Shown piece by piece: positions 9,020-62,397 of a stretch of 64,000 bases of DNA. The notes under the pieces were generated by a model. That model was not told the origin of the DNA. It saw only the letters and a program-made list of their open reading frames with translations, and did not search any database. The DNA comes from a virus: positions 109,359 to 173,358 of the IMG/VR virus record IMGVR_UViG_3300025770_000006. One strand, 5' to 3'. Positions within the stretch are counted from its first letter, which is position 1; each line of letters opens with the position of its first letter. Made by a program: the position numbers and the translations under genes.

Positions 9020-9039
9020 TGTTCTACCTTTTTAAGAAG

Positions 9040-9100: not shown

Positions 9101-9209
9101 AATAATCGAATAACCTTTTCCAATCAAGAGGGTGTTTTAATCTGCCGAACTAGTTGTAAGCGATCTTTTGGATCATCTGGTAGGAGATGTGACATCCAAC
9201 TTGGTGGAT

Positions 9210-42393: not shown

Positions 42394-42423
42394 TTTCTTA
42401 TAACCATAGTGAGGAGTGAGACT

Positions 42424-42771: not shown

Positions 42772-42788
42772 CGAGTAAAAAGAAACTA

Positions 42789-42935
42789 TTAACAATGATC
42801 CTCTTCTATTAAAGGTTGCGAATCTATCTTTCTCAACATCTCCTTTGGGTCAAGCTCATCAACAGAAGAATTATTCTGCGAGATTGACCCACAAGAGAAA
42901 AGAAAAAAGAGGAATAAAGAAAAAAGAAGTCTCAT
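42789..42935 (-). CDS. Small lipoprotein (48 aa), absent from the ORF track
   Basis: MRLLFSLFLFFLFS-CGSISQNNSSVDELDPKEMLRKIDSQPLIEEDHC*; promoter-like motif at 42977-42990. Confidence 0.6.
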   Translation of the reverse strand: MRLLFSLFLFFLFSCGSISQNNSSVDELDPKEMLRKIDSQPLIEEDHC

Positions 42936-42991
42936 GTGTTGTACCCTAACTTATTATCAATATCTCTAAAAAAGGGTATAAAGAAACTACA

Positions 42992-43025
42992 AATCCTCGT
43001 CATATTCCTGTTGAGCGAGGATTAA
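42992..43025. repeat. 34-bp third copy of the actin-gene 3' end (palindromic core)
   Basis: aatcctcgtcatattcctgttgagcgaggattaa, identical to 43504-43537 and 44114-44147. Confidence 0.95.
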
Positions 43026-43438
43026 GCCTCTTTTACTTCAATCTCTTTATGGTCATAGATAACTTGGAAAGTCATCTTATGAACATAATTTTCAACCCCA
43101 AAAAGTTGAAGTTTTCTGGGTCTATCCATCGTACACTTAACCTCAACTATTAGATCCCCAGCAAGATTAATAGATCGATACCCAAGAACTTTAATGTCTA
43201 AGTCGTCTGGTGTGTCTTCGGGAATATCAAAATCAAAAAAACCCTCGATGCCCAAGAAAAAGTCATATAAAGCGTCTTCTACCCAGTTTGATCTAACTCT
43301 TGACCCCGATAGTTTGCTTAAATCTTTTGCTATCGTGGTGGATAGGCTCTTGAGGGTTTCTTCCCGACTTGATTGTTTTTCAAGTCTAGCGATTCTTGAC
43401 TCAAGGTTACGGATAATTTCACTAGCTGATCTTCTCAT
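43022..43438 (-). CDS. Leader-tagged protein (MRRSASEIIRNLESRIARLEKQS) with unknown cargo
   Basis: Leader plus full upstream element; the stop codon lies inside the repeat. Confidence 0.8.
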   Translation of the reverse strand: MRRSASEIIRNLESRIARLEKQSSREETLKSLSTTIAKDLSKLSGSRVRSNWVEDALYDFFLGIEGFFDFDIPEDTPDDLDIKVLGYRSINLAGDLIVEVKCTMDRPRKLQLFGVENYVHKMTFQVIYDHKEIEVKEA

Positions 43439-43501
43439 GGTTTACTCCAGTGGTTTAAGGTTAATGAGATCACTTATGAGAAGATATAAAGAAACTACAA
43501 A

Positions 43502-43637
43502 TCAATCCTCGTCATATTCCTGTTGAGCGAGGATTAACATACCCTTAGAGACAGCGTGAAGCGGGTCAGAAGCATGACGAACCTCTGAGATCTCGATAGG
43601 GGAACGCTTTTTCTTAGTCTCAAAGACCTCCCTAAAG
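43502..43637. repeat. 136-bp displaced copy of the actin-gene 3' end
   Basis: 130/136 identical to 44112-44247. Confidence 0.95.
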
Positions 43638-43647
43638 TTATTATTTT

Positions 43648-44037
43648 TTAACCAACAATGACAGTGTTAGGTCGATCAACCATGTTTGTTTGATACCTGT
43701 CCATTAACTCCGCATCAGTATCGAGGATGGCTTTGTTAATTTCTACTTCAACGCAAAAATGCACTTTGCTTGACGAGATTGTCTTTACATTAGAGACAAT
43801 ACCCATTTGCCGAAGGTTTACCATATCAGACATGAAAGAGGAAACTGCTGATTTTAGAGTAGATGGATAAAGGTGCGTGAAGCAATACTCATTAGCATGG
43901 GAGTTAAAATTCATTAAAATAACACATTCATCTCCGTCAATTATTCTGGTATTGTATGCCGCAGTTTTACTTTTACCTTCAAGTCGTGCGATCCTAGACT
44001 CAAGATTTCTGATTACTTCACTAGCTGATCTTTTCAT
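43648..44037 (-). CDS. Leader-tagged protein (MKRSASEVIRNLESRIARLEGKSKTA) with unknown cargo
   Basis: ATG at 44037, GGAG RBS, full upstream element to 44100. Confidence 0.8.
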   Translation of the reverse strand: MKRSASEVIRNLESRIARLEGKSKTAAYNTRIIDGDECVILMNFNSHANEYCFTHLYPSTLKSAVSSFMSDMVNLRQMGIVSNVKTISSSKVHFCVEVEINKAILDTDAELMDRYQTNMVDRPNTVIVG

Positions 44038-44111
44038 TATAGTTCTCCATTTTGTTAAGGTTAAAGAGATCACTTAAGACCAATTATAAATAAACTATTA
44101 ACCTTGACAGC

Positions 44112-45113
44112 TCAATCCTCGTCATATTCCTGTTGAGCGAGGATTAACATACCCTTAGAGACAGCATGGAGAGGGTCTGACGCATGACGAACCTCTGAGA
44201 TCTCGATAGGGAAACGCTTTTTCTTAGTCTCAAAGACCTCCCTAAAGAAGTCCATGAATCCACCTGCGAGACTTGTACCACCACCCACTACGATTGGAAT
44301 GGGTTTGTTAAGGGTGAGGTGTCCACCTTTCATCACAAACTGCTGTGCGATGTTATCTAAAGCGTGTTCAATAAGAGCCTTATAATAGAACGAGATCGCT
44401 TCTTCTTCTCTATTCTTAGGTGCTTTAAGGTCAATGCCCTTCTCTTTTACCGCACACATTTTAGAAGCTGTTGCACCTACTGATCGAGCCGCTCCTTGAT
44501 CAATCCAATCACCACCACGAGCAACGGAGAAGGATAACCCCTCAATGGTGCTGATAGCGAGAGCGATATTGGTCATACCAGAACCGAAACTAATCCCGAC
44601 ACCAGAAAAACCTTCCTTTGCAGTCTCTGCGAAGACGATAGCCATAGCTTCGTTGGCGGGGTGTGCAGTATATCCACATTCTTGAACGATGCGAGTGAAT
44701 ACACCCTTATGATAAACAACATCCATATTAGCGTCCACAGGAGCCGCAGGGATTGAGAAATAACAATGCTCTCCCTCATGGCTAGGGTCACCGAGAACAT
44801 CTTTGACCATATGTCCGAGAACGGTAAGGGAGTCGATCTCATCAGCAGAGATAAGACCTGCTTTAAGGGGTCTACGACCTTCTCTACCGAACATATTAGC
44901 TACTTCCATAGCTTCATCCCCAAGTACAAGTAGATTGTCGTCAGCTTCGATGTATGACACCGAGCCGAGTTTGAGCATCTTTTTAGCCGAAGATGGGAGA
45001 TCAATAAAGAGGTCACGCATCCTTCTTAGAGTTACTTCATTTTTCTTAGCACCACTCATGCGAGCAGACACCAAGTTCATAGTTCCAATGTCAAGTCCTA
45101 CACCTTTACTCAT
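44112..45113 (-). CDS. Actin-like ATPase (MreB/MamK/ParM superfamily)
   Basis: Phosphate-1 GLDIGTMN, connect NEAMA, phosphate-2 SFGSGMTN, adenosine VGGGTS, AVSKG. Confidence 0.85.
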   Translation of the reverse strand: MSKGVGLDIGTMNLVSARMSGAKKNEVTLRRMRDLFIDLPSSAKKMLKLGSVSYIEADDNLLVLGDEAMEVANMFGREGRRPLKAGLISADEIDSLTVLGHMVKDVLGDPSHEGEHCYFSIPAAPVDANMDVVYHKGVFTRIVQECGYTAHPANEAMAIVFAETAKEGFSGVGISFGSGMTNIALAISTIEGLSFSVARGGDWIDQGAARSVGATASKMCAVKEKGIDLKAPKNREEEAISFYYKALIEHALDNIAQQFVMKGGHLTLNKPIPIVVGGGTSLAGGFMDFFREVFETKKKRFPIEISEVRHASDPLHAVSKGMLILAQQEYDED

Positions 45114-45778
45114 TGTTTATTTGCCTTTCTTAATGCTTTCAAAGCAGAGAGAGCATCCGAGAGTTCTTCAGAACCTTCGGATTTTGTTTCATTCGCCAGA
45201 GACTCTGAGGAGGCTATGGTCTTATTAGAGATAATGTTAGATGGGATAAAGGTCAATCCTTCATCGGCTGTTGTGTTCATATTACCCATAGGTTGATTGC
45301 TTTGAGCGTTATTGTTCACGACAACCTGTTGAGTGGGCATCTGTTTAGCGACAGCTTCAGCGATAGCTTCGGGAGAGATCATTGTCCCTAACTGTTGGAT
45401 AAGGATATTAGCAAGAGCGTTCATGTCTAATTGTGGTTGCTCTGTTTGTTTCTCTACAATCACTTCCTTTTCTACTATCACTTCCTTTTCGACTATCACT
45501 TCCTTTTCGACTATCTTCTCAACCACTACAGGTCTTACTTCTTTAACTACCTTTGACTCATGAATGATTTTAAATCTGTTATTGCTGTTTACCCCTAGTC
45601 GAGAGGGAGATGGATTGCCTTTAACCTTGAGAGCGATCAATCCTGTGTTGACTAAAGTCTTTAGTTCTTGGTTTGAGTCATATTGGGATTTAGTGCAATC
45701 AAAGGTCTGCCCTTGTTTGAACTTGAGTCGAAGACTCTTAATCTCTATATCTTTAAGGCACTGTGCTACATAAATCAT
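45110..45778 (-). CDS. Hypothetical protein with VIVEKE tandem repeats, coupled to the actin gene
   Basis: VVEKIVEKEVIVEKEVIVEKEVIVEK; ATGA overlap. Confidence 0.65.
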   Translation of the reverse strand: MIYVAQCLKDIEIKSLRLKFKQGQTFDCTKSQYDSNQELKTLVNTGLIALKVKGNPSPSRLGVNSNNRFKIIHESKVVKEVRPVVVEKIVEKEVIVEKEVIVEKEVIVEKQTEQPQLDMNALANILIQQLGTMISPEAIAEAVAKQMPTQQVVVNNNAQSNQPMGNMNTTADEGLTFIPSNIISNKTIASSESLANETKSEGSEELSDALSALKALRKANKQ

Positions 45779-46347
45779 TGTTCGCCCTTGCTCATACTTT
45801 TAGTAAGAAAGAAAGTAGCCTTTCGTATAGCTTTTATTCTACCCTTCTCAATCCCTTGCTCGATGAAGTTAAACTTATAAACTGATGGGTGTATCCATTT
45901 GTTTTCTGTTCTAAGAGGAAGATTTCTGAAAACTACTTCACCTGTTTTTGTCTTAATAGGTACGACCTTCCTTTCCATGTTAGAGTTACGAGTCAACCAC
46001 CTCATTTCATAAGGATCTTTGCGTTCAAGATACTTTTTGACCCATTGCCACTCTGACTTGATCTTGATCGCCCCCCCTTTAGATATCTCATAATAAAAGG
46101 AGTCTAGGAAATCTTTGGTGCGAGGAATACCACTGCCGAGTCCTGATGCTCTTTTCGCTTCCTCTTTGATTGCCTTTATTATCTCATCCCCGAAGATCTC
46201 TATGACCTTTTTAGAGATGTCTTTGCCTCTTAGGTCAACATTCTGGAACTGATTTTTACGCACCTTATAAGTACGGAGATCCCAAGGTCTATTTGGATCT
46301 CTGTTCTTTGGTGGGTTTCTTCGTGCTCGTCTAGGGTCAAACTTCAT
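45775..46347 (-). CDS. Basic protein, possibly neck/tail-completion (HK97 gp10-like)
   Basis: PRTKDFLDSF...WIHPSV...FIEQGIE pattern; GGAGGAGGAGGT RBS; late-type motif upstream. Confidence 0.4.
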   Translation of the reverse strand: MKFDPRRARRNPPKNRDPNRPWDLRTYKVRKNQFQNVDLRGKDISKKVIEIFGDEIIKAIKEEAKRASGLGSGIPRTKDFLDSFYYEISKGGAIKIKSEWQWVKKYLERKDPYEMRWLTRNSNMERKVVPIKTKTGEVVFRNLPLRTENKWIHPSVYKFNFIEQGIEKGRIKAIRKATFFLTKSMSKGEQ

Positions 46348-46376
46348 ATCTACACCTCCTCCTCCTGTAGTGTGGA

Positions 46377-46405
46377 TATAAACAACTTACAATAGTCTAT
46401 TTATA
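46377..46405. promoter_or_regulatory. Back-to-back divergent copies of the promoter-like motif
   Basis: Minus strand GTAAGTTGTTTATA (46377-46390) and plus strand AATAGTCTATTTATA (46391-46405), each pointing at a gene. Confidence 0.55.
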
Positions 46406-46478
46406 TTTGGTTTTTTGATAAAAACCCCTCCCTTATTAAAAGTAAGGACGGACAGATGTTCACTTTAAGGATCAAAGC

Positions 46479-46772
46479 ATGAGTGGAGATAGTAAACCCC
46501 CCGAAGAAATAGACCCTATAGAAACAGAGATTAATCTCATCAATGAACTTATAGGAGATAATATAATTATAGTACTCCATCAAAATGGTATGACTATTAT
46601 GATGGATGAGGACATAGAATATAGGGCTGAAGAGCAACTGAAGATGTTTAGTCGTTTATATGTAGCCGCTAACCCCAGCTTTGTGTTGAGACTCTTTTTG
46701 ATGCTTGAGGTGGGGATGCTTCTCGCATGGGACTACCTAGAAGATTCCTTCAATAAATATATTAAAAGATAA
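46479..46772 (+). CDS. Hypothetical protein
   Basis: 97-aa ORF with AAGGA RBS. Confidence 0.55.
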   Translation: MSGDSKPPEEIDPIETEINLINELIGDNIIIVLHQNGMTIMMDEDIEYRAEEQLKMFSRLYVAANPSFVLRLFLMLEVGMLLAWDYLEDSFNKYIKR

Positions 46773-46833
46773 TCTTATCCCCTCCTAAATTGTATAAGGT
46801 AAGTGTTCACATTAACCACAATGGAGGTCGCAC

Positions 46834-47298
46834 ATGAGCGATAAATGGAAAGCAGGACCTGAAGTCCAAGAGCAGATTAATCATCTCATCGGAAACGCAC
46901 ACCCACACTTGGCTGACATCATGAATGACATTGTAGTCATCTTTAAAGAGAAGTGTTCACGCAAGGGTGGTCGCCCTATTCTCGGTAAGACCTCAAAAGC
47001 ACCAGGGATCTTGTCTGTCCTTGGGGATCACGCATACGAGTTTGTCATTGAGCTTGGGGCAGACTGTTGGAACAACCTTAAAGAGAATGAGCGTATGGCT
47101 CTACTTGACCATCTTCTCTGCTTCATCGGAGGTGAAGAAGACGAGAAATCGGGTGAGATGAAGTATTATCTCTCGACTCCCGATGTCTTTTATTTCTCTG
47201 AGGAAGTTGCTCGTAATGGGAGTTGGCGTGAGGAGATCCTACCCGATGGTGTACCCGAAGAGGGTTCAGACGCACCTTTGTTAGACCCTATCGGTTAA
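46834..47298 (+). CDS. Phage metallopeptidase-like protein with a degenerate active site
   Basis: HPHL...ILGKTSK...FVIEL...W...ALLDHLLCF...PDV; GGAGG RBS. Confidence 0.6.
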   Translation: MSDKWKAGPEVQEQINHLIGNAHPHLADIMNDIVVIFKEKCSRKGGRPILGKTSKAPGILSVLGDHAYEFVIELGADCWNNLKENERMALLDHLLCFIGGEEDEKSGEMKYYLSTPDVFYFSEEVARNGSWREEILPDGVPEEGSDAPLLDPIG

Positions 47299-47873
47299 AG
47301 GTCTAACCACCTTTTGAGTTCATTGCGATAGTTCTCACCCTTGTTGATGTAGTGGCTAACGATTTCATTAGACATGAACCTCATGTGGCATCCGATTGTC
47401 CAACGAAGATCACCCTTTCGATCAATCGAAGCATTTTCAAGTGTCAACATGAAATGGGGATCTTCAGACCCATCAAGAAGTGTTCCTGACTGTAGCACTC
47501 GCCGATAATCCCCACCGCTCAGTTTAAATGCCTTTCGTCTAGGGTCAAACTTTACATACTTTGGGAAAGTCTTATCAAAGGATTCTGATACGGTACCATC
47601 AGTATCGAGCTTATGTAGTGATGAAAGAATCTTCATAATATCTACAACTTCGTCATACAACTCGATATACAACTCTTGGGTAGGGGTGGTTTCTTCTTCT
47701 TGTCCAAAGTAATCATCTTTAAAAATCTTTGAGTCATCTTCATAGTATGATCTCTCTGCGTCATACATATTAGAGTCAAAATAACCTTGTGGGTATCCTG
47801 CTGTCCTTTGGTTTTCAAGACGAGCGATTCTTGACTCAAGGTTTCTGATTACTTCTGATGCTGATCTTCTCAT
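47295..47873 (-). CDS. Leader-tagged protein (MRRSASEVIRNLESRIARLENQRTA) with unknown cargo
   Basis: Leader; promoter-like TAATAGTTTACCTATA at 47927-47942; sits inverted within a plus-strand gene run. Confidence 0.8.
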   Translation of the reverse strand: MRRSASEVIRNLESRIARLENQRTAGYPQGYFDSNMYDAERSYYEDDSKIFKDDYFGQEEETTPTQELYIELYDEVVDIMKILSSLHKLDTDGTVSESFDKTFPKYVKFDPRRKAFKLSGGDYRRVLQSGTLLDGSEDPHFMLTLENASIDRKGDLRWTIGCHMRFMSNEIVSHYINKGENYRNELKRWLDL

Positions 47874-47957
47874 GGGCTGTTCCTTTCATATAAGAACAAT
47901 GGTATAAAAACACACCTAATGTTAATTATAGGTAAACTATTAAAAAGGAGTATTGAT

Positions 47958-48443
47958 ATGAAGTACGCAAAATTTGAAAAGATTGATGGAAAAGATCAAC
48001 TTGTCGTTGTGACCCGTGATGAACTCATTCATTTGGTTGGGTCAGAAGAAGTGGATCAATACATCTTTGATAATGGGTATACAGACCACTCTGACGAGAC
48101 ATTCAATAACTACCAAGAGATGACCGCACAGACTGCAAAGTACCCCCCATCTCAAGCTCTTGAGTACCTTTCACTCGGTATTGCATCTGAGGCGGGAGAG
48201 GTAGCAGGTAAGATGAAGAAATGGATTCGAGATGATTCCAAACTTTGGGAGATTGAAAAAGAGGAGGCTAAACAAAAGTGGGTTCAAGCGATGTCATCAG
48301 AGATTGGGGATGTTCTCTGGTATTGTGCCCGACTCGCAGATGAGCTTGGTCTAAGTCTCTCTCAGATTGCAGAAGAGAATATGGAGAAGCTCTTAGATCG
48401 AAAGGCTCGTGGTGTTATCGGTGGTAGTGGGGATAACCGATGA
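47958..48443 (+). CDS. MazG-like nucleotide pyrophosphohydrolase
   Basis: LGIASEAGEVAGKMKK...EIGDVLWY...NMEKL...GSGDNR. Confidence 0.88.
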   Translation: MKYAKFEKIDGKDQLVVVTRDELIHLVGSEEVDQYIFDNGYTDHSDETFNNYQEMTAQTAKYPPSQALEYLSLGIASEAGEVAGKMKKWIRDDSKLWEIEKEEAKQKWVQAMSSEIGDVLWYCARLADELGLSLSQIAEENMEKLLDRKARGVIGGSGDNR

Positions 48444-48497
48444 GGTTTATAAACTGTTTATAATCTCCTTTAGTTATAAAAACTGAGGTTAGTTTAT

Positions 48498-49181
48498 ATG
48501 AGACTAGTTTGCATTTCAGACACACACAACCAGCACGATAAACTTGAGTTGCCCGATGGGGATGTTCTAATCCACGCAGGAGATTGGACAGGTACAGGTA
48601 CGCAAAAGCAAGTTATCTCATTTATAAGATGGTTTGCGAATCAGCCACATAAACATAAAGTCTTGATTGCAGGAAATCATGAGGTGACTCTTGACTCACC
48701 TTTTTATCGTACTAACTGGCCTAGATTCCACCCTCAACAACCCCACAGTTCACATGATATCTCTAACTATGTGTTGAGAGAAGAGGGCATCCACTACCTT
48801 GAGGATACAGAGGTGGTTATAGAGGGTGTTAAGTTTTACGGTAGTCCATGTCAGCCCTCTTTTGGTGGTTGGGCTTTTAATGTAGACAGGGGTTTACCGA
48901 TACGATCTGTATGGGGGAATATACCCGATGACACTGATGTCTTGATAACTCATGGGCCTCCACATGGATATGGAGATAAGTTAGCTTGTGGAGAGCGTGT
49001 GGGCTGTAAAGATTTACTTGATGAGGTAACGACAAGAATCAAGCCCAAAGTCCATATTTACGGACATATACATGAAGGGTATGGCACATACGACTTAGAG
49101 GGTATAAAGCTAATTAACCCTTCTAGTTGTAATGAGCATTATAAGATTACAAATAAGCCTATCATATATGACTTAGAATAA
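48498..49181 (+). CDS. Metallophosphoesterase (calcineurin-like)
   Basis: ISDTH, HAGD, AGNHE, THGPP and GHIHE motifs. Confidence 0.92.
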   Translation: MRLVCISDTHNQHDKLELPDGDVLIHAGDWTGTGTQKQVISFIRWFANQPHKHKVLIAGNHEVTLDSPFYRTNWPRFHPQQPHSSHDISNYVLREEGIHYLEDTEVVIEGVKFYGSPCQPSFGGWAFNVDRGLPIRSVWGNIPDDTDVLITHGPPHGYGDKLACGERVGCKDLLDEVTTRIKPKVHIYGHIHEGYGTYDLEGIKLINPSSCNEHYKITNKPIIYDLE

Positions 49182-49297
49182 CTTGTTTTCAAGTCGTGCT
49201 ATTCTTGATTCGAGTCTGAAGCTGATCTTTTCATAATGGTTTCTCCATTTGGTTAAGGTTAAAGAGATCACTTAAGATCAAGTATAAATAAACTATC
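49182..49297 (-). pseudogene. Empty, frameshifted copy of the promoter-RBS-leader element (no cargo)
   Basis: ATG at 49234: MKRSAS, then a deletion of about 13 nt, then LESRIARLENK in another frame. The upstream 56 bp are 53/56 identical to 44043-44098. Confidence 0.85.
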
Positions 49298-49301
49298 AAA
49301 C

Positions 49302-50312
49302 CTAGTATGGCTCTCTGAAATCTAGGTTTTCTCCCTCAAGGAGATGAGCAATAAAATTAAGCTCCTTCTTACTTAGACCTCTAAAAGTAAGAGTTGTTTC
49401 TAGGTGTCCAGACTCATTTAAGACAGCTTCTGTGAAATGATCCTCTACACCCCAAGCATATCCAGCATAAACGGAAGAACTATCTTGCTCAAGTACTATT
49501 GAAGAGGGTTTGACCTCGACAGACATTAAACCCTCTATTTCACCAAACTCACTCTTAACTGCTTCCTCAATGTCTTCCCCCCTCAACTGACCCTTATCTT
49601 CCCAAGTAGCGATTATATCCCTATCATCCATAAGTTTGTGGGTGAGTGTGTAGGTAGTATTTATTCGAGCTGTCTTGTTTTCAAGTCGAGCGACTCTTGA
49701 TTCAAGACTGTTAATTATTTCACTAGCTGATCTTCTCATCCCTGCGATCTCCATATCTTTGAGTATTCTATTTAGAACTTTCTTGACTCTACGATCTCTA
49801 GTCAAAGAGAGGGCTTTTTCAAAGTCTCCGCTCCATAGTGCGTCATATTTTTCAGACATTTCATCTCTAAACTCTGGGTCATAGATATAAAGCATTGGTT
49901 CATGCTTTTCGATAGCCTCGATTAAGAGATGTTTTACGGACGAGTGTCTTTTCATGATGTATTCACTTTGTTTGCTTGTGGATGGAAAAGGGGTTGGGTT
50001 ATATTTAGCCGCCATATCAACCATCTCACGATCTTCATGTGTGAGTCTTTGTCGATACCAGTCAGAACCCATAGTGATAAGTGCATAATTAGTACGGTCT
50101 AAAGATCTCTCCATTTTAGAGAGGTGCTTAGGGATGGCTTCAAAGTTATCCCCACAACGCTTGTATACTTCTTCTGCGAGTTGCGGGTGTTCTTTGATAG
50201 CTTCTACCATCTGGTTGACATGACTACGAACAATGTGAGCTTCTACACGAGAGGCTGAGACACCTTCAGATAAAATAGACCAAGATGCTTGGCTTGAAGA
50301 TTTCTTTTTCAT
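49302..50312 (-). CDS. Modular protein with an internal leader copy (MRRSASEIINSLESRVARLENKTA at 49668-49739)
   Basis: Translation; promoter-like motif at 50348-50362. Confidence 0.75.
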   Translation of the reverse strand: MKKKSSSQASWSILSEGVSASRVEAHIVRSHVNQMVEAIKEHPQLAEEVYKRCGDNFEAIPKHLSKMERSLDRTNYALITMGSDWYRQRLTHEDREMVDMAAKYNPTPFPSTSKQSEYIMKRHSSVKHLLIEAIEKHEPMLYIYDPEFRDEMSEKYDALWSGDFEKALSLTRDRRVKKVLNRILKDMEIAGMRRSASEIINSLESRVARLENKTARINTTYTLTHKLMDDRDIIATWEDKGQLRGEDIEEAVKSEFGEIEGLMSVEVKPSSIVLEQDSSSVYAGYAWGVEDHFTEAVLNESGHLETTLTFRGLSKKELNFIAHLLEGENLDFREPY

Positions 50313-50359
50313 TATTATCCCCCTTGTCTTTTGTTCTAACGACAATAATAGAAGAACTA

Positions 50360-50824
50360 TTACTCAAGCTCTTCTGGTATATCGAAGCGTATCGTTCTTC
50401 TATATTTATCTCGATACCCAATTTTAGCTTCTACTTGATGCTTACAAGGGATCATCTTTCCTGTCTTGATCTTGTGTAAGATTAACTCGTAATCCATGAG
50501 ATCACCAGGCAATGCCATAATGATATATGGGTTAGCTATATCAGTTGGTAGGTCTTTAGGGTCAACTACAAGCACAATCGCAGTTGGAGTAGAAATCCAA
50601 CCTTTAATGTGGATCGTCTGTTTGGTAGCAAGTATTGAGGTGTATGGCTTTAAGTCGATTACAGATCCGTTTGATCCGAATGACTTAAGGACAGCAACAG
50701 ACCCTTTTTTAGTCCAATAAGATGGAATAGGGGGTGTGTTGAGTTCACTCCTCCACCAGAGTAAAAGTTCTTCGGGTTCTCTTATACAAGCAACGAGACT
50801 AGATATTTTTGTGATTAGATCCAT
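50360..50824 (-). CDS. Hypothetical protein
   Basis: 154-aa ORF in the minus-strand operon. Confidence 0.6.
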   Translation of the reverse strand: MDLITKISSLVACIREPEELLLWWRSELNTPPIPSYWTKKGSVAVLKSFGSNGSVIDLKPYTSILATKQTIHIKGWISTPTAIVLVVDPKDLPTDIANPYIIMALPGDLMDYELILHKIKTGKMIPCKHQVEAKIGYRDKYRRTIRFDIPEELE

Positions 50825-50826
50825 GA

Positions 50827-52656
50827 TTACTGCCCTTTGATTTTAAACTTAGTTTTCCAGTTAGGTGAGTAAGTGTCCAAGACACTTCTGTTCACCCTAG
50901 AGACTAAGTTAGGTTCAAGCACATTAGCGATCAAAGCATTGGTTTTAGGTGTTCGAGAGCTTTTGGGCATATAGATGTTTCCGTTAGTCTTATCTATAAA
51001 TGCCACAGCGTGTTTAGACCCTAACTCCAAGTTATCGTAGACTAGTTTAATCATAGAATTGCCTACTCTAGCTTCTAAGTCTAAAGCATTCGCTATTCCC
51101 CTACTCGCTTCTGTGATCGCATCTAAATTACTTTCTGGAGTAGTTGGTCTTGTCGGTTCGGGTGTTTGATCCACGATTTCTGTTGGAGGAGGTGTTGTAT
51201 TCCCCTCCGTTATCATGTTCATTGTTCTCCAACGAGGCTTTAAGCTACTCATTCTCTCATGTCCTACACAAACATCTAAGTTATTGTCTGTAATGTTTGC
51301 GAGGTTGACATTTAGGTTTGGTTTAGACTTATTCTTAGGTGCAAACAAGTTACCTGTCGCATAGTCAATGAACATATATGCGTGTGTAGATCCAATAGCT
51401 TGATTGGTGTAGATAAAGAGTCCATACTTACGCCCCTTCTTAAAGAACAGTCCAAGACGACTCGCCAAGGACTCAGAGGTCTGTATCATTTGTTGTTTAC
51501 TTGGGAGTGTTTCTTCAACCTGCGTTGTGGGAACATTCTCTTCTGGTGTAAATTCTTCCGTAAAGTCAGTCATGTTTGGAGTGTACTCTTGACCGTCTAT
51601 TACAATGCTATTAAACGCATCTAAAGACTTCGGATGTAGCTTCCCTACTGCTTTGTAAGCTAAGGCTTCGCAGAAATGCTCTTCTACATCAGAGGTAGCA
51701 TAATTAGTAGGGAACAGACCAGACCGAGACTTGAGGTGGTCTTTAATGTACTTTGCTTTGTACGCACCGACTTCGCTTCCATCTGGCAATACAAGGTAAA
51801 CACCACCTCTTGGGTGAGTCCGAGAAAGCGTAGTTGGAACACCATGACTCGGATTTGAACTTATAGTTGTCTTAGTACGATTCTTTTTGGCATATAAACC
51901 GATGTCTTTACCCACAAAGTCATTGAGATTTACTCTGTGTCCCATATGACATCGGGAGTCATATCTTCTCCATAAACTCTTTTTCTCCCTAGATAGATTC
52001 TTCCTGTAATATCTATGTCCAATTTCATGGATGAATGTCTTCATGAACTCTTCTTGATCTCGACCCATGTGCTTTAGGGTGACTTCATCTTTAGCAGAGT
52101 TGTACCACGCATACCAACTAGCCCTACCTAGCTTTTCGACTAACACCACATCACCATAAAGTGCTTGAGTAAAGTTGGGTGCAAGCGAGTTTGTGCAGTA
52201 AGTAAGTGCTTTAGTACAAGCCTCTACCATCTCTTCAACTTTATCGCCACTGAGGTTGATTGGGTTCTGCAAAGTAAAAGGACCAACATCAACTGTGTTT
52301 TCACCTTCTTCTCTTAATGGATGTTTCAGAAGATCAAAGATATCCTTAATATGTGATCTTCTATCAGAAAACCATTTAGCTGGACTGAATCTTGATCTAG
52401 GCATCTTAACCTTGTTTTTTATGGCTCGGACTCTCCTAGATTTATCTTCGGGAAACTTGATCTTATGGAACAAGAAATCGGCTAGATGCACTGTGTGTAC
52501 TACTGCCGTAGTATCTAAACTCTGAAGATGCAGATGATCTTCAATGTAGTCGAGAGCATCGGTTACTTTTATATTGAACTGACTACCTCTTACGAGTCCT
52601 TGCCAGTCGCCTAGTTTACATCTACTTAAATGATTATAACTAGCGTACTTTTTCAT
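50827..52656 (-). CDS. Zincin-type metallopeptidase-domain protein with two tandem C-terminal repeats
   Basis: FIHEIGHRY...YATSDVEEHFCEA; repeats HAYMFIDYATGNLFAPK and HAVAFIDKTNGNIYMPK. Confidence 0.65.
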   Translation of the reverse strand: MKKYASYNHLSRCKLGDWQGLVRGSQFNIKVTDALDYIEDHLHLQSLDTTAVVHTVHLADFLFHKIKFPEDKSRRVRAIKNKVKMPRSRFSPAKWFSDRRSHIKDIFDLLKHPLREEGENTVDVGPFTLQNPINLSGDKVEEMVEACTKALTYCTNSLAPNFTQALYGDVVLVEKLGRASWYAWYNSAKDEVTLKHMGRDQEEFMKTFIHEIGHRYYRKNLSREKKSLWRRYDSRCHMGHRVNLNDFVGKDIGLYAKKNRTKTTISSNPSHGVPTTLSRTHPRGGVYLVLPDGSEVGAYKAKYIKDHLKSRSGLFPTNYATSDVEEHFCEALAYKAVGKLHPKSLDAFNSIVIDGQEYTPNMTDFTEEFTPEENVPTTQVEETLPSKQQMIQTSESLASRLGLFFKKGRKYGLFIYTNQAIGSTHAYMFIDYATGNLFAPKNKSKPNLNVNLANITDNNLDVCVGHERMSSLKPRWRTMNMITEGNTTPPPTEIVDQTPEPTRPTTPESNLDAITEASRGIANALDLEARVGNSMIKLVYDNLELGSKHAVAFIDKTNGNIYMPKSSRTPKTNALIANVLEPNLVSRVNRSVLDTYSPNWKTKFKIKGQ

Positions 52657-52658
52657 TT

Positions 52659-54799: not shown

Positions 54800-54800
54800 A

Positions 54801-55979: not shown

Positions 55980-56030
55980 TTCTGTTCTCCTTAAGAGGGT
56001 TCATCTTTAATAGTGGTAATAGATAAACTA

Positions 56031-57917
56031 TTAAATAGAGGGTAGTCCTACGAGGTACTTAACAACATCACCCTTACCCTCTAGGTTTCGGGTGTAGCAT
56101 TTTCTATCATCATCCCACTCAAGAGGTTTATTGATGATTGTCCTTACTTGATCTTCATCTTGAACATGGTTGACACCGAGTCTCTTCTTTAAGAGTCGGG
56201 CGAACCTTGCGTCAACCTCTGCGTACCAACCTCTCTTTAAGAGAAGTTCAGCACCTTTCATCAACATAGCGTTCCTACCTTCACTTGTTCCGTCAGATCC
56301 GATGAGTCCAATCTTCTTTCCGAAAGGAGTAGATGAGTAGCTGACGAAAGCGTCTATCTCATCATCACCTTCTACATCTACAACCCAGAAGGTGTCGTAG
56401 TTGCTCATAAGATCCGACTTGGAGCTTATGTGTTTCCCTACTTTGGAGTATGACAGATCATAAATAGTCCAAAGTTGTTCTTGTTGATCTTGATCAAACT
56501 GTCGAGGGGGTGCTTCAACCCACTTTTTACGCTCAAGATGAACACGAGCGATACGACTAGCCATTCTTTGATGGGTGTTAAAGATCATCTTATATGCTTC
56601 GCCCACAGCTTTCTTATATTTGCCTTTGGCGTATCTTTTAAGAGTGTGAAAAAAGCTATTTGGGCTTGTGGATCTCGTCCATTTAGATTTTGACCCGACA
56701 CCAGTTAAAGCTTTGAATACCTCTAATTTATCTTTTTCTGTGAAAGTCTCATATTCAGAAAATCGCTTTAGATCAGACATTATTGTTCTAATGTTATCTC
56801 TAAGATCAGTATAAAACTCACCATCGTCAAGATAGTGGAGTTCCTTTTTATCTCTTACGCTTAGACTTTTGGGGTCTCCATGTTGGTTATATTCAGGGGT
56901 TTGGATTTTCTTTGAGGGCATACCAGCTTCATTCTTATACGCCCTAAAATTGTCTGTTATTTTCTTACCCACGAAAGTTAATATAGATTGACCAACATGA
57001 GTCATTTCATGGATTACAGAAGTATGCACTGCTCTTATTACATTACGCACAGTAGGATGGTAATCAAAAGACTGAAGAATCTTTTTCCCATAGTCAGGGA
57101 TAGCGATTGTGACTTCTTTTTTAGTAAAAGACCAACTACTGTTTGTTGCATCTACCTCGATCTTTACTTTGATCTTGTCAAAATACTCCCAAGTACGGCT
57201 CATGTCTGACATACTTTTTTTTAAGGACTCAACCATCATTTCATAGTTTTCAATGAGGTCCTCGAACTCAGGGTTGTTTTTCTTTTTCGCCTTCTCAATT
57301 ATTTGAGAATACTCCACGATTTGACCCTTGGCTTTTTCCCGCATCATTTCTTGATGTTCTTCTAATGAGTTTTGGTCGAGATACCAGTCACCAAAATAAA
57401 TAGGGAACTCTTTAATAATCACCTGCCCCATTTTCATGGGTTTTAATTTTACTCGGATGACTTTCTTAAATTCTTTTATCTCCCCTTTAAGTTTCTTTGT
57501 CTCTCTTTCGCCCCAAGATAAGTAACTCTCCAATTCGATCTCGGTTTTCGCTATGCTTTCTTCAACGACTACTCTTATCTGTTCTCTTTTGGCGGGGTCT
57601 TTTACTCCAGAGAAGTATCTCTGTTTTAAATGCATAGATGCATAACCATATCCAAAGTACCCTGTGGACAATGAAGAAAAATCTTTATAACTATTGAAAA
57701 GACCACGAGTCCCATCCTTCCTTAACGATTCTCTAAGGGAGACAATGGAGTCTGAGAGGGCGGATAGACGGGTTTCTTGCTCTCCTCGGTAGTTTTTATA
57801 ACTTTTAATCTTCTCTTGTAGGGCTTTGACGATATTAGTAGCTACTTGAGAGAGTGCAAAACCATAAACATCTTGAGTCATCATTTCTGGTGGCTTCATT
57901 AGTCCTGCGTATTTCAT
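56031..57917 (-). CDS. Zincin (HExxH) domain protein with an additional C-terminal module
   Basis: SVIHEMTHVGQ...YLDDGEF; RMASRIAR junction before the last domain. Confidence 0.6.
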   Translation of the reverse strand: MKYAGLMKPPEMMTQDVYGFALSQVATNIVKALQEKIKSYKNYRGEQETRLSALSDSIVSLRESLRKDGTRGLFNSYKDFSSLSTGYFGYGYASMHLKQRYFSGVKDPAKREQIRVVVEESIAKTEIELESYLSWGERETKKLKGEIKEFKKVIRVKLKPMKMGQVIIKEFPIYFGDWYLDQNSLEEHQEMMREKAKGQIVEYSQIIEKAKKKNNPEFEDLIENYEMMVESLKKSMSDMSRTWEYFDKIKVKIEVDATNSSWSFTKKEVTIAIPDYGKKILQSFDYHPTVRNVIRAVHTSVIHEMTHVGQSILTFVGKKITDNFRAYKNEAGMPSKKIQTPEYNQHGDPKSLSVRDKKELHYLDDGEFYTDLRDNIRTIMSDLKRFSEYETFTEKDKLEVFKALTGVGSKSKWTRSTSPNSFFHTLKRYAKGKYKKAVGEAYKMIFNTHQRMASRIARVHLERKKWVEAPPRQFDQDQQEQLWTIYDLSYSKVGKHISSKSDLMSNYDTFWVVDVEGDDEIDAFVSYSSTPFGKKIGLIGSDGTSEGRNAMLMKGAELLLKRGWYAEVDARFARLLKKRLGVNHVQDEDQVRTIINKPLEWDDDRKCYTRNLEGKGDVVKYLVGLPSI

Positions 57918-57919
57918 TT

Positions 57920-58966
57920 TTACCCCCTGTTTAGATATGAAGAAGCAACACGACTAGCCCTGCGTTTATTGATGTCTCTTAATACGAGATCGACCACGCT
58001 TAGTTGAGCCGATGGTTTGACATTGGGCAACAGACCTGCAATCTCAATCGCTAACTCTTTTCTCGACAACCCGCTTTGAGCGAGGTTTAAGATTTGAGAT
58101 ACCTGTTCATCTGAAACATCTGTCTCTGACTGCAAGCAAGGCAGTAAGGAAGCCATTTTAGAGGTTGTTGAGGGTAAGTGTCTGATGATCTCTGGGAATG
58201 TGGAGATACCTTTACAAGTACGGATTAAGTCAGCCCCCTCAAACAAGAACGCAGTACATTCTCCTTGAGCGTTCTTTTCAAAATCAAGGGAATACTGTCC
58301 AACACCTGGAACTGAGACTTTGTAAACAAGATATATCCCGTCCACATCTGCTTTACATGACCACTTATCAAGCATGGTCATGTAGCCTAAGTGCTTCACA
58401 CTTGATACGATCTCTTTTACAGAGCTTACAAAGTCATCTCTAGTAGCCATGATTTGTCTCCCATCTTCTGTTATTTCACGCTCAATCATAAGAGCAGGTC
58501 TGCGAACTAAGTAGTTAGGCCACTTCTCGTACCACTTAGCATAGAAGTCATCTTCGGAGACTTCACGAGTGGTCTTGTCGGGGTTGGGTAGATTCGGGTC
58601 AGCCACATGAACTACATAGCTTCCTTTTTCACCTGTAACATCAAAGATCAAACTAGCATGACTCCAATCCCTACCTTCGGGATTCCATGCAATAAGTACA
58701 GGCTTACCCTCATCTGTCCACGCTTTTACTTGGGTCAAAGTAGCTGGTGTAGTGAGGGTAGCTCGACACCCAAAATACTGAGCACAAGCTAAGACTTCTT
58801 CCCACCTAGCCCCTTGCATAGGTTTTGCACCAATCACTTGATTGACTTGATCCTCGTTGCACTTAACGCCAACAGCATTTAGAGCCATACAGGTGGAGGT
58901 CGCCACACAACTAAACTGTGAACGCTGTCGTATTGGGCTCACATCTGCTTTTGCTGATCTTCTCAT
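57920..58966 (-). CDS. C39-like (papain-fold) peptidase-domain protein beginning with a truncated leader (MRRSA)
   Basis: Q..QFSCVAT (Cys), WSHASLI (His), VADPN (Asp); promoter-like motif at 59004-59017. Confidence 0.75.
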   Translation of the reverse strand: MRRSAKADVSPIRQRSQFSCVATSTCMALNAVGVKCNEDQVNQVIGAKPMQGARWEEVLACAQYFGCRATLTTPATLTQVKAWTDEGKPVLIAWNPEGRDWSHASLIFDVTGEKGSYVVHVADPNLPNPDKTTREVSEDDFYAKWYEKWPNYLVRRPALMIEREITEDGRQIMATRDDFVSSVKEIVSSVKHLGYMTMLDKWSCKADVDGIYLVYKVSVPGVGQYSLDFEKNAQGECTAFLFEGADLIRTCKGISTFPEIIRHLPSTTSKMASLLPCLQSETDVSDEQVSQILNLAQSGLSRKELAIEIAGLLPNVKPSAQLSVVDLVLRDINKRRASRVASSYLNRG

Positions 58967-59029
58967 GATAGGTATCCCTTTCTATTGTTAGAAAAGGCAC
59001 ACCTATAAAGAGACTACAAATCTACTGTC

Positions 59030-59791
59030 TTATCTTCTCTTAAACTTCGCTTTATTGAGGTGAATCTGAATGTGTCCTTTTTCTCCTATACCAATATCAT
59101 AGTCCTTATCGTAGCCCGATTTGAGCTTTTGAAATATGGGGTACTTTCTTGTTAGGAGTTTATTAAGATCATTGGTTAGAGGTCCAGCCCACTCATCCCA
59201 CCAACCTTCTTCATCCCAACCTTCTGGATCACAGTCATCATCCCAATCCTCATCACAGTCATAATTCTCTCCAACATAATGGTCGAGTCTATGTCTATTC
59301 ATAGGTTCTATCCATAGGAACCAGGTATCTCCATCGTCACTTAGATCCATACCACTCATACGACTGCCATTCGGGGTCCTTGATCTAATCAAGAAATCGT
59401 ATACCTCTTGAGCTGTCGGTAGTTGTTCTTCAACTGTAGGTCGAGATCGAGGTGTTGATCTAGTAGGTGTTGGTTGTCGAACAGCTCTTGCACTTGGAAC
59501 AGAGGGTTGTCTACCTGTTGGGTTGGATCTAAATGAGTCAGCCAAGTCAGATGCGTTGTTTCTGTGCATCATCTTTCTGATGTTTTTTAGATCACGATCA
59601 CTAAGATCTCCACCGTCTTTGAGGATCTGAAGGTATCCTCCAAGTTCAATGACCATTCTCGTGTCAGTTCGGTTTTGAGCTATGAAACCCCTAAGAACTT
59701 CATAAGCCTCTGTCTTAGTAGTCGCTTGTTTTTCAAGCCTTGCAATCCTCATCTCAAGACTTCTGATTATTTCTGAGGCTGATCTTCTCAT
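59030..59791 (-). CDS. Leader-tagged protein (MRRSASEIIRSLEMRIARLEKQA) with acidic, W-rich cargo
   Basis: Leader, GGAG RBS, motif at 59829-59844. Confidence 0.8.
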   Translation of the reverse strand: MRRSASEIIRSLEMRIARLEKQATTKTEAYEVLRGFIAQNRTDTRMVIELGGYLQILKDGGDLSDRDLKNIRKMMHRNNASDLADSFRSNPTGRQPSVPSARAVRQPTPTRSTPRSRPTVEEQLPTAQEVYDFLIRSRTPNGSRMSGMDLSDDGDTWFLWIEPMNRHRLDHYVGENYDCDEDWDDDCDPEGWDEEGWWDEWAGPLTNDLNKLLTRKYPIFQKLKSGYDKDYDIGIGEKGHIQIHLNKAKFKRR

Positions 59792-59841
59792 AAGTGTTCT
59801 CCATTGATTTAGGTTAGTTAAGATCTAGTATAATGAAACTA

Positions 59842-60744
59842 TTAAAAGCGATCTCTATCAAAAGAATCGCTATCAAAGTCTGCAATCACATCATATTCAA
59901 TTTGAGCAACGACAATAACAGTTAAATATCTGTCATCATCTCGAAAGATGTCTCTAACTTCATAATCATACTCGATCACTTCGATTTGAGAGATGTTATG
60001 ATAGCTAGGGAGTCTCTGTTTTATCTCATATTCAACTTCACCAAAAGCTAAGTCAATTTCTTCTGATCCCATATTTCTCAAGATGTTGTTCTCAATGTTC
60101 TTAGTGAGAGCATCACACAAGATTTTAGTAGATTTATCTTCTGGAGGATAGAAGTCATCTAAGTTCATCTTAGCTAGTTTCTCAAGGTCTTTTAAGTCAA
60201 CTTTGAGCTTCATCTTGGTCTTTGATCCTACGACACCCGAAACTGTGTCCAATTCGGGATAAGCTGGATTGCTAGGGTGTAGCATAGAGTTTGATTCAAC
60301 TTCGATCTCACCTTTCATAAGTTTTTCATTCTTATTGATGACTTCACCATCAAGAATAGAAGCAGACAAAGCATGGAGGAAATGATTTGCTTGTCGATCA
60401 GAAACACCTGGCATCATTGCTTGAACAGACTTTAATCCTGTACCTGCTTGTTTCAGACTCGCATTACGATAACTCGATGTTATCCGATCTGCATCACGAT
60501 CTGACAGATACATATCTGTATCCCGATCATAATACTTGCCTGCTTTCGGGTCGTAGTAAAGAACTTCACCACCTTTAAACATGAAAGGCCCTTCAAGACC
60601 TTGATTGGAAAGATCTGTGTACCGATCACGATCAAGACGGGGCAGACGATGTTTAGCCATCATTTCTTCATGGTGTCTCTTTGCAGAGGATCTCTTCTCA
60701 AGGTTCGCAATACGCACCTCAAGATTTCTGATTGTATCTTTCAT
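59842..60744 (-). CDS. Leader-variant protein (MKDTIRNLEVRIANLEKRS) with a YYDPKAGKYYDRDTD module
   Basis: ATG at 60744 with GGAG RBS; partial upstream element. Confidence 0.75.
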   Translation of the reverse strand: MKDTIRNLEVRIANLEKRSSAKRHHEEMMAKHRLPRLDRDRYTDLSNQGLEGPFMFKGGEVLYYDPKAGKYYDRDTDMYLSDRDADRITSSYRNASLKQAGTGLKSVQAMMPGVSDRQANHFLHALSASILDGEVINKNEKLMKGEIEVESNSMLHPSNPAYPELDTVSGVVGSKTKMKLKVDLKDLEKLAKMNLDDFYPPEDKSTKILCDALTKNIENNILRNMGSEEIDLAFGEVEYEIKQRLPSYHNISQIEVIEYDYEVRDIFRDDDRYLTVIVVAQIEYDVIADFDSDSFDRDRF

Positions 60745-60788
60745 TAGTATCTCCATTTATTTGGTAGGGTTAATGATCTAAAATTTGA

Positions 60789-61904
60789 CTATCTAAGAGA
60801 GACTGCTTCCATTTTATAAGTCAAATAAGTGATTGCAGGGTATCGACTCGCTGTCTTACCCTCTACCATCTCATCATATTCGTCAGTATTAACCACCCAG
60901 CGATACATCGCTTTCTCTAAGAGAGCTAAAAACCCTGTTATGATGAGTGGTGCAAAACTACCTATGTTTTGTTTTAGATAATCCTTAACCTGATCTGCAT
61001 TTAAACTGATCGGTTGGTATTGAGATATTGGAGTCTCTATCGTTGTATGCTCAATTTGAAGGAAGTTATTATCTGAAGCAGGGATAGCGTCTAATGTAAG
61101 ATCTCCTTTTGACATTGCTACTTCCATTTTTTTAGCAAGGTCTTGGGCTTCTTCTATCGTGGGGAGCTGTGTGGTCGGAGGAACTTCTTGAACAATACGA
61201 ACCCTTGTATTTTGACTCAAAGCGGTATACTCAGTCATATCTGCTAAAGTGGTTCTTAACCCAGAGGCTTGGACAATCAAACGAGCTAACATCACAATGA
61301 TCGTGGTCACTACTGTGCCTTTTAAAGCCATTATCCCCACTACCCCTATGAGAGATGTGAAAAAACGATAAAGTACCTTAGAATACCTTTTAAGAGCGTT
61401 CATGAATATCTTAAAGCTATCCCCTTCACTAATCTTCTTAGGGTTAAGGATATGCTTAAAGTCTGAATACCATGAAAGGTATGCACTTTTCATCCTCGTT
61501 TGGTTTTCGCCCACATACTTTTTAACAAGGTCTTTTAAAGGAATCTTTTTATCCTCTGCCTTACCCCCTGTGAAGATAGATTTCAAAGGGTCTGAAGGAT
61601 TAAAGGAAACGATCTTAGGTAAGCCAGCTCTTGTGGTTGTCACACCTGCCATAGCTCTAAAAATCCTTGAACCCAACAACGCCCCTAAAGAGTCGTTAAT
61701 CTTGGATTTATTTCCCTCAACTTCAAGATTGACCGTATTGTATATGTCAGCAAATCCATTGATGATCTTCTTAACAATGTTCTTAGGGATATTAACAAGA
61801 CCTTTAAATGTACTTGAAATATCATCTATGAACCCTGCTTGACGCTCTAAGTTTGCGACTCTAATTTCAAGCTCTCTTATGGTTTCACTGGCAGATCTTC
61901 TCAT
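60789..61904 (-). CDS. Leader-tagged protein (MRRSASETIRELEIRVANLERQA) with membrane-spanning cargo
   Basis: Leader; hydrophobic segments FFTSLIGVVGIMALKGTVVTTIIVMLA and FAPLIITGFLALL; full upstream element. Confidence 0.8.
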   Translation of the reverse strand: MRRSASETIRELEIRVANLERQAGFIDDISSTFKGLVNIPKNIVKKIINGFADIYNTVNLEVEGNKSKINDSLGALLGSRIFRAMAGVTTTRAGLPKIVSFNPSDPLKSIFTGGKAEDKKIPLKDLVKKYVGENQTRMKSAYLSWYSDFKHILNPKKISEGDSFKIFMNALKRYSKVLYRFFTSLIGVVGIMALKGTVVTTIIVMLARLIVQASGLRTTLADMTEYTALSQNTRVRIVQEVPPTTQLPTIEEAQDLAKKMEVAMSKGDLTLDAIPASDNNFLQIEHTTIETPISQYQPISLNADQVKDYLKQNIGSFAPLIITGFLALLEKAMYRWVVNTDEYDEMVEGKTASRYPAITYLTYKMEAVSLR

Positions 61905-61962
61905 AAGATTTCTCCATTTGATTTAAGGTTAATGAGATCACTTATGAGAACCTATAAAGAGA

Positions 61963-62397
61963 TTACAAATCTATCACCACACAAAGACCAGAGCTAGGGT
62001 ACTTCCTTTTAAGAGAATCCCACACCCTCATGGCTTGGTCGCTAGTAGAACCCGATATGCTACATTTTTCGGGTATGATGACAAAGGGTTTCCTCACCCT
62101 TTTCGACCAACCCTCTATGAGCCTTTGATAAATCTCTGACCCGATTCTCTTGCCATGATAGTCTTTACTAAGACTAACCACAGTTACTTCAAGAATTCGT
62201 ATCTCCTCACCCTCCATGACTTGAGGGTATTCATAACTGATGTCAATGAGGTCATCAGAACAGTGGTAGGTATGTACTACTTCCATCATAGAGATAGAGT
62301 CTCCATAAGCCCTAGCAAGCCCGATGACATTACCTTGATCTTTAACCTCTACAAAAACAGAGGTTGGTGTGGTTTTGACAGAGAACTCTAACATCAT
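61963..62397 (-). CDS. GNAT-fold acetyltransferase-like protein
   Basis: VSLSKDYHGKRIGSEIY (motif A) and SDQAMRVW. Confidence 0.6.
   Translation of the reverse strand: MMLEFSVKTTPTSVFVEVKDQGNVIGLARAYGDSISMMEVVHTYHCSDDLIDISYEYPQVMEGEEIRILEVTVVSLSKDYHGKRIGSEIYQRLIEGWSKRVRKPFVIIPEKCSISGSTSDQAMRVWDSLKRKYPSSGLCVVIDL

Follow-up and report, generated by a model that had tools for sequence, protein, structure and literature searches.

When almost the same stretch of non-coding DNA stands in front of one unrelated phage gene after another, has it been copied there recently, is it held constant by selection, or is it a place at which genes are exchanged? We pursued this question in 64,000 nucleotides of viral DNA (positions 109,359 to 173,358 of IMG/VR virus record IMGVR_UViG_3300025770_000006; hereafter the window). 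A preliminary description of the window had noted that an N-terminal tag recurs between 43022 and 61966 as part of a DNA unit of about 130 bp, consisting of a promoter motif, a spacer, a ribosome binding site, and leader codons, and had proposed that this unit was recently copied as a whole onto new genes, or that its copies recombine and exchange their cargo genes. Comparison with related viral contigs leads us to put a probability of roughly 70% on a narrower reading, namely that the unit is a co-adapted expression-and-tagging module which offers portable homology to general recombination and is not self-mobile.

Anatomy of the repeated unit

The promoter-like motif TAGTTTNTTTATA occurs 11 times in the window at no more than one mismatch, against 0.9 occurrences expected from shuffles, and 10 of the 11 sit 40-75 nt upstream of a start codon on the same strand. 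A 22-nt box, TAAGTGATCTCWTTAACCTTAA, occurs four times in the window with none expected, and each time GGAG, an ATG, and the tag follow. Alignment of 36 distinct promoter-bearing units, taken from the window and from IMG/VR loci, gave a common block order: a promoter of about 16 nt at -59 to -62, 7-10 variable bases, the box in the 5' untranslated region (5'UTR; 22-24 nt), 3-4 variable bases, the Shine-Dalgarno (SD) block AATGGAG, 5-8 variable bases, and the ATG. Promoter, box, and SD are invariant across the 36 units and only the stretches between them vary. From the promoter to the leader end at +66 the unit spans about 128 bp, in agreement with the length first proposed.

The tag has the consensus MRRSASEIIRNLExRIARLE (about 20 codons, or about 22 residues) and is predicted to form an amphipathic N-terminal helix. 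In its alignment (A1) 11 of 24 columns are invariant, and a Pfam search with a threshold as lax as E = 5 gave no match to the tag region. Nine tags were recovered by a six-frame scan of the window, a tenth lies at 10124, a broken copy is found at 49234, and truncated or variant forms occur at 58966 and 63462. About 10 genes of the window bear the tag, and a tag profile recovers 31 and 26 copies in two complete relative genomes. All 44 box occurrences found lead into an SD, an ATG, and the tag, while the cargos behind them are very diverse.

The unit is composite and its parts are separable, so the notion of one indivisible piece did not hold up. The promoter motif also precedes genes counted as untagged (42935, 58966, and 63462 in the window), and tags without promoter or box exist at 7539 and, inside a longer reading frame, at 49739. 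In a complete 375-kb relative the motif occurs 48 times, compared with 0 for a reversed control; some 17 stand in front of one of the 31 tags of that genome, and about 31 serve untagged genes. The motif is therefore best regarded as a putative general phage promoter of a gene class and not as a tag-specific element. It has no -35 partner, i.e. the repeat holds no sigma-70-like early promoter, and a sigma-70 scan of 42.7-50.4 kb returned 14 sites versus 16.8 expected. A small hairpin inside the box (TTAAG with CTTAA) was considered and dropped, as TAAG-to-TAGG variants are uncompensated within the box. GATC is present in the box, in one spacer class, and in tag codons 3-4, and the phage encodes several DNA methylases; methylation-dependent control of the units is conceivable.

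The similarities reported in the preliminary description are exact: 44043-44098 and 49241-49296 agree at 53 of 56 positions, and 43454-43482 and 61922-61950 at 29 of 29. The partial versions noted in front of 59791 and 60744 are likewise there, the former as a promoter with one mismatch and a degraded box, the latter as a partial box without promoter motif. What we could not uphold is the step from near-identity of the spacer DNA to recent copying. Conservation is block-wise, the exact box is found in 31 stretches of IMG/VR viral contigs from many samples (several stretches per contig), and the tag codons for identical residues are only 63% identical, Ser6 for instance being TCA in 25 units and AGT in 20. 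Since same-residue codons match to this extent only, the tag appears to be old and maintained at the protein level, and the three observations together suggest that the non-coding blocks are under purifying selection. Near-identity between units thus seems to reflect functional selection more than recent copying. The only pair that looks like a fairly recent copy is unit 1 behind the volactin gene and a cargo-less stub (Table 1), which are about 90% identical over some 80 nt and have a rare Lys2 codon as well as 7 of 9 spacer bases in common.

Selection may also extend into the reading frame. The codon AGA is used at 88 of 90 Arg2/Arg3 positions versus 44 of 116 positions at Arg10, 15, and 18 (p = 6e-22), suggesting that codons 2-4 are constrained at the nucleotide level. 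The 7-10 bases of the spacer can pair with the start region ATGAGAAGATCA, through ATGAGAAG in one spacer class and through AAGATCA in another. The duplex of spacer and start region has a mean energy of -7.7 kcal/mol; with shuffled spacers the mean is -3.8 (z = -13), and spacers pair more stably with the start region of their own unit than with permuted partners (p = 0.024). Stems of 10 bp fold at 43438 and 61904, and the 5' strand of the stem starts 1-3 nt after the final TATA of the promoter motif. Operon-internal tags have no such stem. In a distant clade with different UTR sequences, stems again join promoter-proximal bases to the SD or AUG. Members of this clade (L036, L037, and L044 at about 5990-6050; L038 and L039) carry a diverged tag behind volactin, e.g. 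MKKTAEMALANLEMR.., and in L037 the two stem strands contain extra C and G bases that compensate each other.

Such a stem would silence translation of read-through transcripts, while transcripts from the unit's own promoter would lack its 5' strand and be translated, as in T4 genes e, soc, and I-TevI. That the predicted stem gates translation in this way is the less certain part of our proposal. If it does, promoter, UTR, and first tag codons would need to be kept as a set, and their linkage would be accounted for. Variation in the UTR and in the leader codons is in fact weakly linked (r = 0.12, Mantel p = 0.02; spacer class versus Ser6 codon, Fisher p = 0.02), and weak linkage is what is expected if crossovers also fall within the unit.

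Cargo differences at orthologous loci

The relative used for locus comparison, G005 (IMGVR_UViG_3300028189_000018), is syntenic and colinear with the window over 43.4-64 kb at 80-92% identity. Behind the volactin gene the two are alike up to the promoter motif, and from there on spacer, leader codons, and cargo differ, so that the two proteins have only the 20-residue leader in common. The alignment of the cargo A gene with a gene of L022 is confined to the 20-residue leader, and L032, L033, and L034 hold one common, different cargo at the cargo A position. Of 16 alignment breakpoints between the window and G005, six fall in units, which make up about 6% of the region (binomial p about 3e-4).

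Further along, the gene starting at 47873 is homologous to its G005 counterpart only through residue 58, and DNA homology ends at 47808 and resumes at 47298. Over 49184-49966 the window has, relative to G005, an additional in-frame tag with cargo and then the stub. The G005 counterpart of ORF (open reading frame) 49302-50345, 72% identical otherwise, stops about 15 residues past the end of homology, without tag and cargo. The stub, absent from G005, has its leader broken by a deletion and an early stop and ends flush with a convergent phosphoesterase gene.

A second pair of relatives, L012 and L017, whose flanks are 95-98% identical, differs by one cassette indel and two cargo swaps. The indel is flanked by an 80-nt repeat composed of the upstream gene end and the promoter; the swaps have 5' breakpoints at leader codons of about 8-13 and about 20, mosaic leader patches, and abrupt 3' borders. 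At the end of a different gene, L021 has the final 15 nt of volactin together with the promoter. Besides the window, L017 and L021 have leader-only stubs, of 24 and 29 residues; in L021 tRNA-like 3' arm sequence follows the leader-only ORF at about 1850-1900 on the reverse strand.

These comparisons support the suggestion that cargo is exchanged by recombination between copies, as cargo is replaced and cassettes are gained or lost at orthologous loci. Breakpoints had been anticipated at the 3' end of the leader. Some do lie near codon 20, but others lie in the promoter, within the leader sequence, some 35 residues past its end, or in the 3' end of the upstream gene, and the 3' ends of the cassettes have no common site. 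The comparisons show that it is at these conserved blocks that cargo is replaced, inserted, or deleted between relatives.

A further example is the cassette array (Table 1) for which the volactin gene is the conserved upstream anchor. The last 34 nt of this gene, which form a hairpin at 44114-44145, are present three times and its last 141 nt twice; the hairpin pattern (three occurrences versus 0 expected) precedes three promoters of this one array only. Read along the minus strand, the order is gene end, unit 1, and cargo A, then the 141-nt copy, unit 2, and cargo B, and finally the 34-nt copy, a promoter, and a lipoprotein gene. The 141-nt copy differs from the real gene end at six positions, five of which are synonymous third positions in the reading frame of volactin. 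What follows the copy is a junction of the kind that L033 and L034 have behind volactin and that L021 has at the end of another gene; the real gene is followed by a junction of the L032 type. Synonymous differences and junction type argue that the copy diverged while still coding, probably from another phage's volactin, and it probably arrived by unequal, partly illegitimate crossover rather than by in situ duplication. Where cargo A meets the volactin copy the join is non-homologous and has only about 11 nt in common with the gene.

Neither cargo A nor cargo B was found in five relative records or in IMG/VR; the exact protein of cargo B is recorded on 57 contigs, and its homologues P0002-P0004 are all tagged. 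Just upstream of the unit 1 promoter, AAGGTTAA at 44099-44110 is the exact complement of the box's TTAACCTT; this inverted repeat brackets the promoter at this locus only and is shared by the L032 orthologue. The T5orf172/GIY-YIG-like gene next to the array is at most a possible source of breaks. An orphan promoter motif on the minus strand (42776-42788) is directed into the 3' end of this gene and is followed by no gene.

At 59-62 kb, three tagged cassettes form a 2.9-kb block between two copies of a 24-nt direct repeat that holds the promoter motif. G005 is without the block and has one hybrid copy of the repeat. As the genes flanking the block are adjacent in four relatives, in two of these (L055 and L056) at only 76% protein identity, the block is most simply an insertion in the lineage of the window. 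Its three cargos differ in history. The cargo at 59791 has 83% identity to a gene of G001 that lies across a conserved neighbour gene and has a truncated tag and no promoter, another matches genes 100 kb away in G001, and the third has homologues only in G002 (L035), a complete 312-kb relative with about six paralogous genes. The six or so tagged paralogues in G002, related to the cargo at 60789-61904, lie at 150-157 kb, four of them in tandem just upstream of volactin, and carry the tag variant MNKVSAQQIRSLEMRIARLE.

Two further differences from G005 concern other genes. Two untagged genes at 50315-52648 (154 and 612 residues, the latter with DUF7717) are missing there, the junction falling in the shared AATGAAAAAG start region. 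G005 (L050-L052) is also without 1.87 kb at 56571-58444, so that the N-domain of the C39-like peptidase is fused in frame to the C-terminal 180 or so residues of a 628-residue protein; the fusion point is a shared ATGGCTA (..IMA|SRIARVHLE..), and the motif that is kept is similar to the tag core.

Table 1. Features of the window discussed in the text, in window coordinates.
Feature	Coordinates	Strand	Details
Three more full-tag genes, outside 43022-61966	7468-10124	-	ATG at 7539, 8112, and 10124; the first without own promoter
T5orf172/MUG113 (GIY-YIG-like) gene	42409-42771	+	Pfam PF10544, E = 2.6e-9; abuts the array
Lipoprotein gene, untagged	42789-42935	-	48 residues; behind the third hairpin copy and promoter
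Third volactin hairpin copy and promoter	42977-43025	-	Hairpin copy 42992-43025, promoter 42977-42989; before the untagged lipoprotein gene
Cargo B	43022-43372	-	Stop codon inside the third hairpin copy
Unit 2	43373-43497	-	Promoter 43485-43497, box 43455-43476, ATG 43438, leader; 10-nt spacer complementary to ATGAGAAGAT
Displaced copy of volactin 3' end	43497-43637	-	141 nt, 94% identity; includes hairpin 43504-43535
Cargo A, ORFan	43648-43971	-	Behind unit 1
Unit 1	43972-44097	-	Promoter 44085-44097, box 44055-44076, SD, ATG 44037, leader codons to 43972
Volactin-family actin-like gene	44112-45113	-	Pfam PF25216, E = 5e-75; orthologues in L032-L049
Unit with promoter motif, different UTR (no box), and leader	47808-47939	-	Gene 47295-47873, 192 residues
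Cargo-less stub	49182-49295	-	Promoter 49283-49295, box 49253-49274, SD, and ATG 49234 intact
Embedded in-frame tag	49668-49739	-	No promoter or box; inside ORF 49302-50345
C39-like peptidase gene	57920-58966	-	Keeps only the first five tag residues
Downstream copy of 24-nt promoter repeat	59001-59024	-	Before the C39-like peptidase gene
Block of three tagged cassettes	59025-61949	-	2.9 kb; 60789-61904 (box 61923-61944), 59842-60744, 59030-59791
Upstream copy of 24-nt direct repeat with promoter motif	61950-61973	-	Left block border; family D14, 96% identity

Weighing the explanations

We propose that the conserved blocks supply short portable homology for general recombination, which would take place between co-infecting relatives and between paralogous copies, with occasional illegitimate joins. 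Recombination would add, remove, or swap a cargo ORF behind a constant front end. Each such event would leave a second copy of the promoter, in many cases with part of the upstream gene's 3' end attached, and tandem arrays, hybrid promoters, and empty stubs would result.

Several observations weigh against this proposal. Ten of the 16 breakpoints relative to G005 lie outside units, and the many indels there indicate that the region is generally hyperplastic. A 32-nt probe over the junction of cargo A and the volactin copy matched no JGI metagenome contig, in a collection that lacks the window's own contig. Neither Pfam nor PHROG assigned the cargos to a family of known function. As to the stem, RNAalifold found no consensus structure in the mixed set of 36 units, which we attribute to the use of at least two registers across spacer classes, and the duplex-energy test was used in its place; single-sequence folding z-scores are modest (-0.9 to -2.5). 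The units share descent, so that z and p values, which treat them as independent, are inflated. Finally, the whole evidence base is sequence comparison of metagenome assemblies.

Could selection alone explain the pattern, with ancient and immobile units each kept before its own gene and cargo differences that are ordinary divergence? Block-wise conservation with a box exact in many contigs, the substantial synonymous divergence of the tag at 63% codon identity, and the cargo B homologues, which retain the tag and co-diverge with it, are all in keeping with that idea. We nonetheless consider it quite unlikely, for it is already contradicted by the orthologous-locus comparisons: cargos without detectable similarity are found between flanks 82-98% identical, with a sharp switch from one to the other, and genomes differ by the presence of a 2.9-kb block between promoter repeats. 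The duplication of upstream gene 3' ends in lengths of 34, 80, and 141 nt, the occurrence of the same cargo at different positions in two genomes, and the rare Lys2 codon and similar spacer common to stub and unit 1 speak against it as well. An origin of these patterns in misassembly, the 60-140-nt repeats having led the assembler to join strain variants, seems very improbable. All sequences do come from metagenome assembly, repeats of this length can confuse short k-mers, and the window junction was not found in JGI metagenome contigs. However, the two-cassette arrangement of L012 recurs in five samples (L012, L014, L018, L020, and L028), the 11 or so nucleotides at the join between cargo A and the volactin copy are too short for a k-mer chimera, the exact cargo B protein stands on its 57 contigs, and relatives differ in coherent, frame-preserving ways.

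General recombination has also to be set against a dedicated mobile system, in which the box or hairpin would be the site of a phage site-specific recombinase or homing nuclease, acting by integron-like capture or break-driven homing. The box is strictly tied to tagged cassettes, the array is bordered by the T5orf172/GIY-YIG-like gene, as is a cassette in L055 and L056 by a GIY-YIG-like ORF, and the empty cassettes look like unoccupied sites. Such a system is improbable all the same. No integrase was matched among the window proteins scanned, which did not include every ORF, and a common site is missing at the cassette 3' ends. Junctions vary from the promoter, the inside of the leader, and positions beyond it to 34, 80, or 141 nt into the upstream gene. 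Unit-independent indels use microhomologies of 7-10 nt, and the pattern fits general recombination. Because the junctions are scattered and these indels make do with microhomologies, no recombinase would be required.

Related systems and significance

Searches of GenBank phages brought no match for the window, neither by megablast with 8 kb of its DNA nor by tblastn with a tagged protein. The window encodes an SNF2 helicase, a DnaB-like helicase, DNA methylases, tail-like proteins, and the volactin-family actin, and related viral contigs in IMG/VR reach 375 kb, with two rated complete and further sizes from 226 kb. The size and gene content of the relatives fit a jumbo phage, and we place the unit in a clade of uncultured marine jumbo phages.

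The known system closest to the unit is that of the promoter-early stem-loop (PeSL) cassettes of T4-type phages, repeats that precede ORFans in hyperplastic regions (Arbiol et al., 2010, PMC2839356; Comeau et al., 2014, PMC4122927), and the two are alike in evolutionary behavior. Both are short repeated promoter sequences, with a stem-loop in PeSLs and a predicted stem of another kind in the jumbo-phage unit, in front of ORFans in hyperplastic regions, both have borders of indels and replacements between close relatives in the repeats, and neither is known to involve a transposase or integrase, repeat recombination being the proposed driver in both. The differences lie in the make-up. The promoter motif of the jumbo-phage unit is not sigma-70-like, and its stem would pair promoter-proximal bases with the start codon and holds no terminator, a terminator-like hairpin at the volactin end being confined to one array. 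The unit also runs through the 5'UTR box into about 20 tag codons, whereas PeSLs are without a coding component, and its host and phage lineage are unrelated and uncultured. With tag codons included in the module, recombination would preserve a protein-targeting front end as well as expression.

For the tag, a passage of PMC3012670 (citing Repoila et al., 1994, EMBO J 13:4181) describes the internal proteins of T-even phages as a "highly diverse set" with "only a conserved CTS", the capsid-targeting sequence. There, as here, small proteins that are otherwise unrelated and change rapidly have a short conserved N-terminal leader in common; in the tagged proteins of the window and its relatives, similarity ends with the leader. 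Going by this analogy, the tag is probably a shared targeting or assembly signal, e.g. a capsid-targeting sequence. It differs from the T4 CTS, however, in having about 22 residues without sequence similarity to it and in occurring on 26-31 genes per genome, against a handful for the CTS. A search for the T4-type prohead protease (PF03420) gave no match in four relatives, where the search controls were equally silent.

A precedent for the predicted stem is found in T4 genes e, soc, 49, and I-TevI, where a late promoter coincides with the 5' strand of an inhibitory helix, so that translation is confined to transcripts started there (PMC3014915). A helix that sequesters the SD or AUG is the common feature, although in the jumbo-phage unit it is a prediction from folding. 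Here, in contrast to gene e, the 3' strand is formed by the first tag codons, and one stem design is reused at many genes. Integrons resemble the system in their promoter-proximal arrays of small, unrelated, exchangeable ORFs, but the tagged cassettes lack attC-like 3' sites and each has its own promoter. An integron-like reading was rejected, given no attC at the cassette 3' ends and no integrase match among the proteins scanned (not every ORF was). Each aspect of the unit has a known parallel, and what is new is the combination of promoter, stem, and tag in one module of about 128 bp that is reused at about 30 genes per genome.

A bolder and unlikely possibility is that box and leader form a dedicated cassette-capture platform, with circles or packaged fragments of the type "UTR, tag, cargo, promoter" plugging into any resident unit of co-infecting jumbo phages. 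If true, the clade would share a pool, about 30 per genome, of tagged and probably virion-delivered effector genes, in which one RNA stem design silences newcomers until the right time, and the platform would be a phage counterpart of the integron coupled to a delivery signal.

The reading that we prefer, the unit as a module that gives general recombination its homology, would extend gene shuffling by regulatory cassettes from T4-like phages to unrelated, uncultured marine jumbo phages, with a recombining module that carries a protein tag besides expression signals. The predicted promoter-proximal stem offers a testable reason for the co-evolution of non-coding DNA and first codons, and the case also illustrates that identity of short regulatory DNA is unsafe for dating copy events. 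The exact 22-nt box may serve as a handy probe for the tagged cargo genes of this clade in metagenomes. A gene landing behind the module would be expressed on schedule and presumably routed with about 30 other proteins, and the tagging module would thereby provide these phages with an efficient way of trying new accessory or anti-host proteins.

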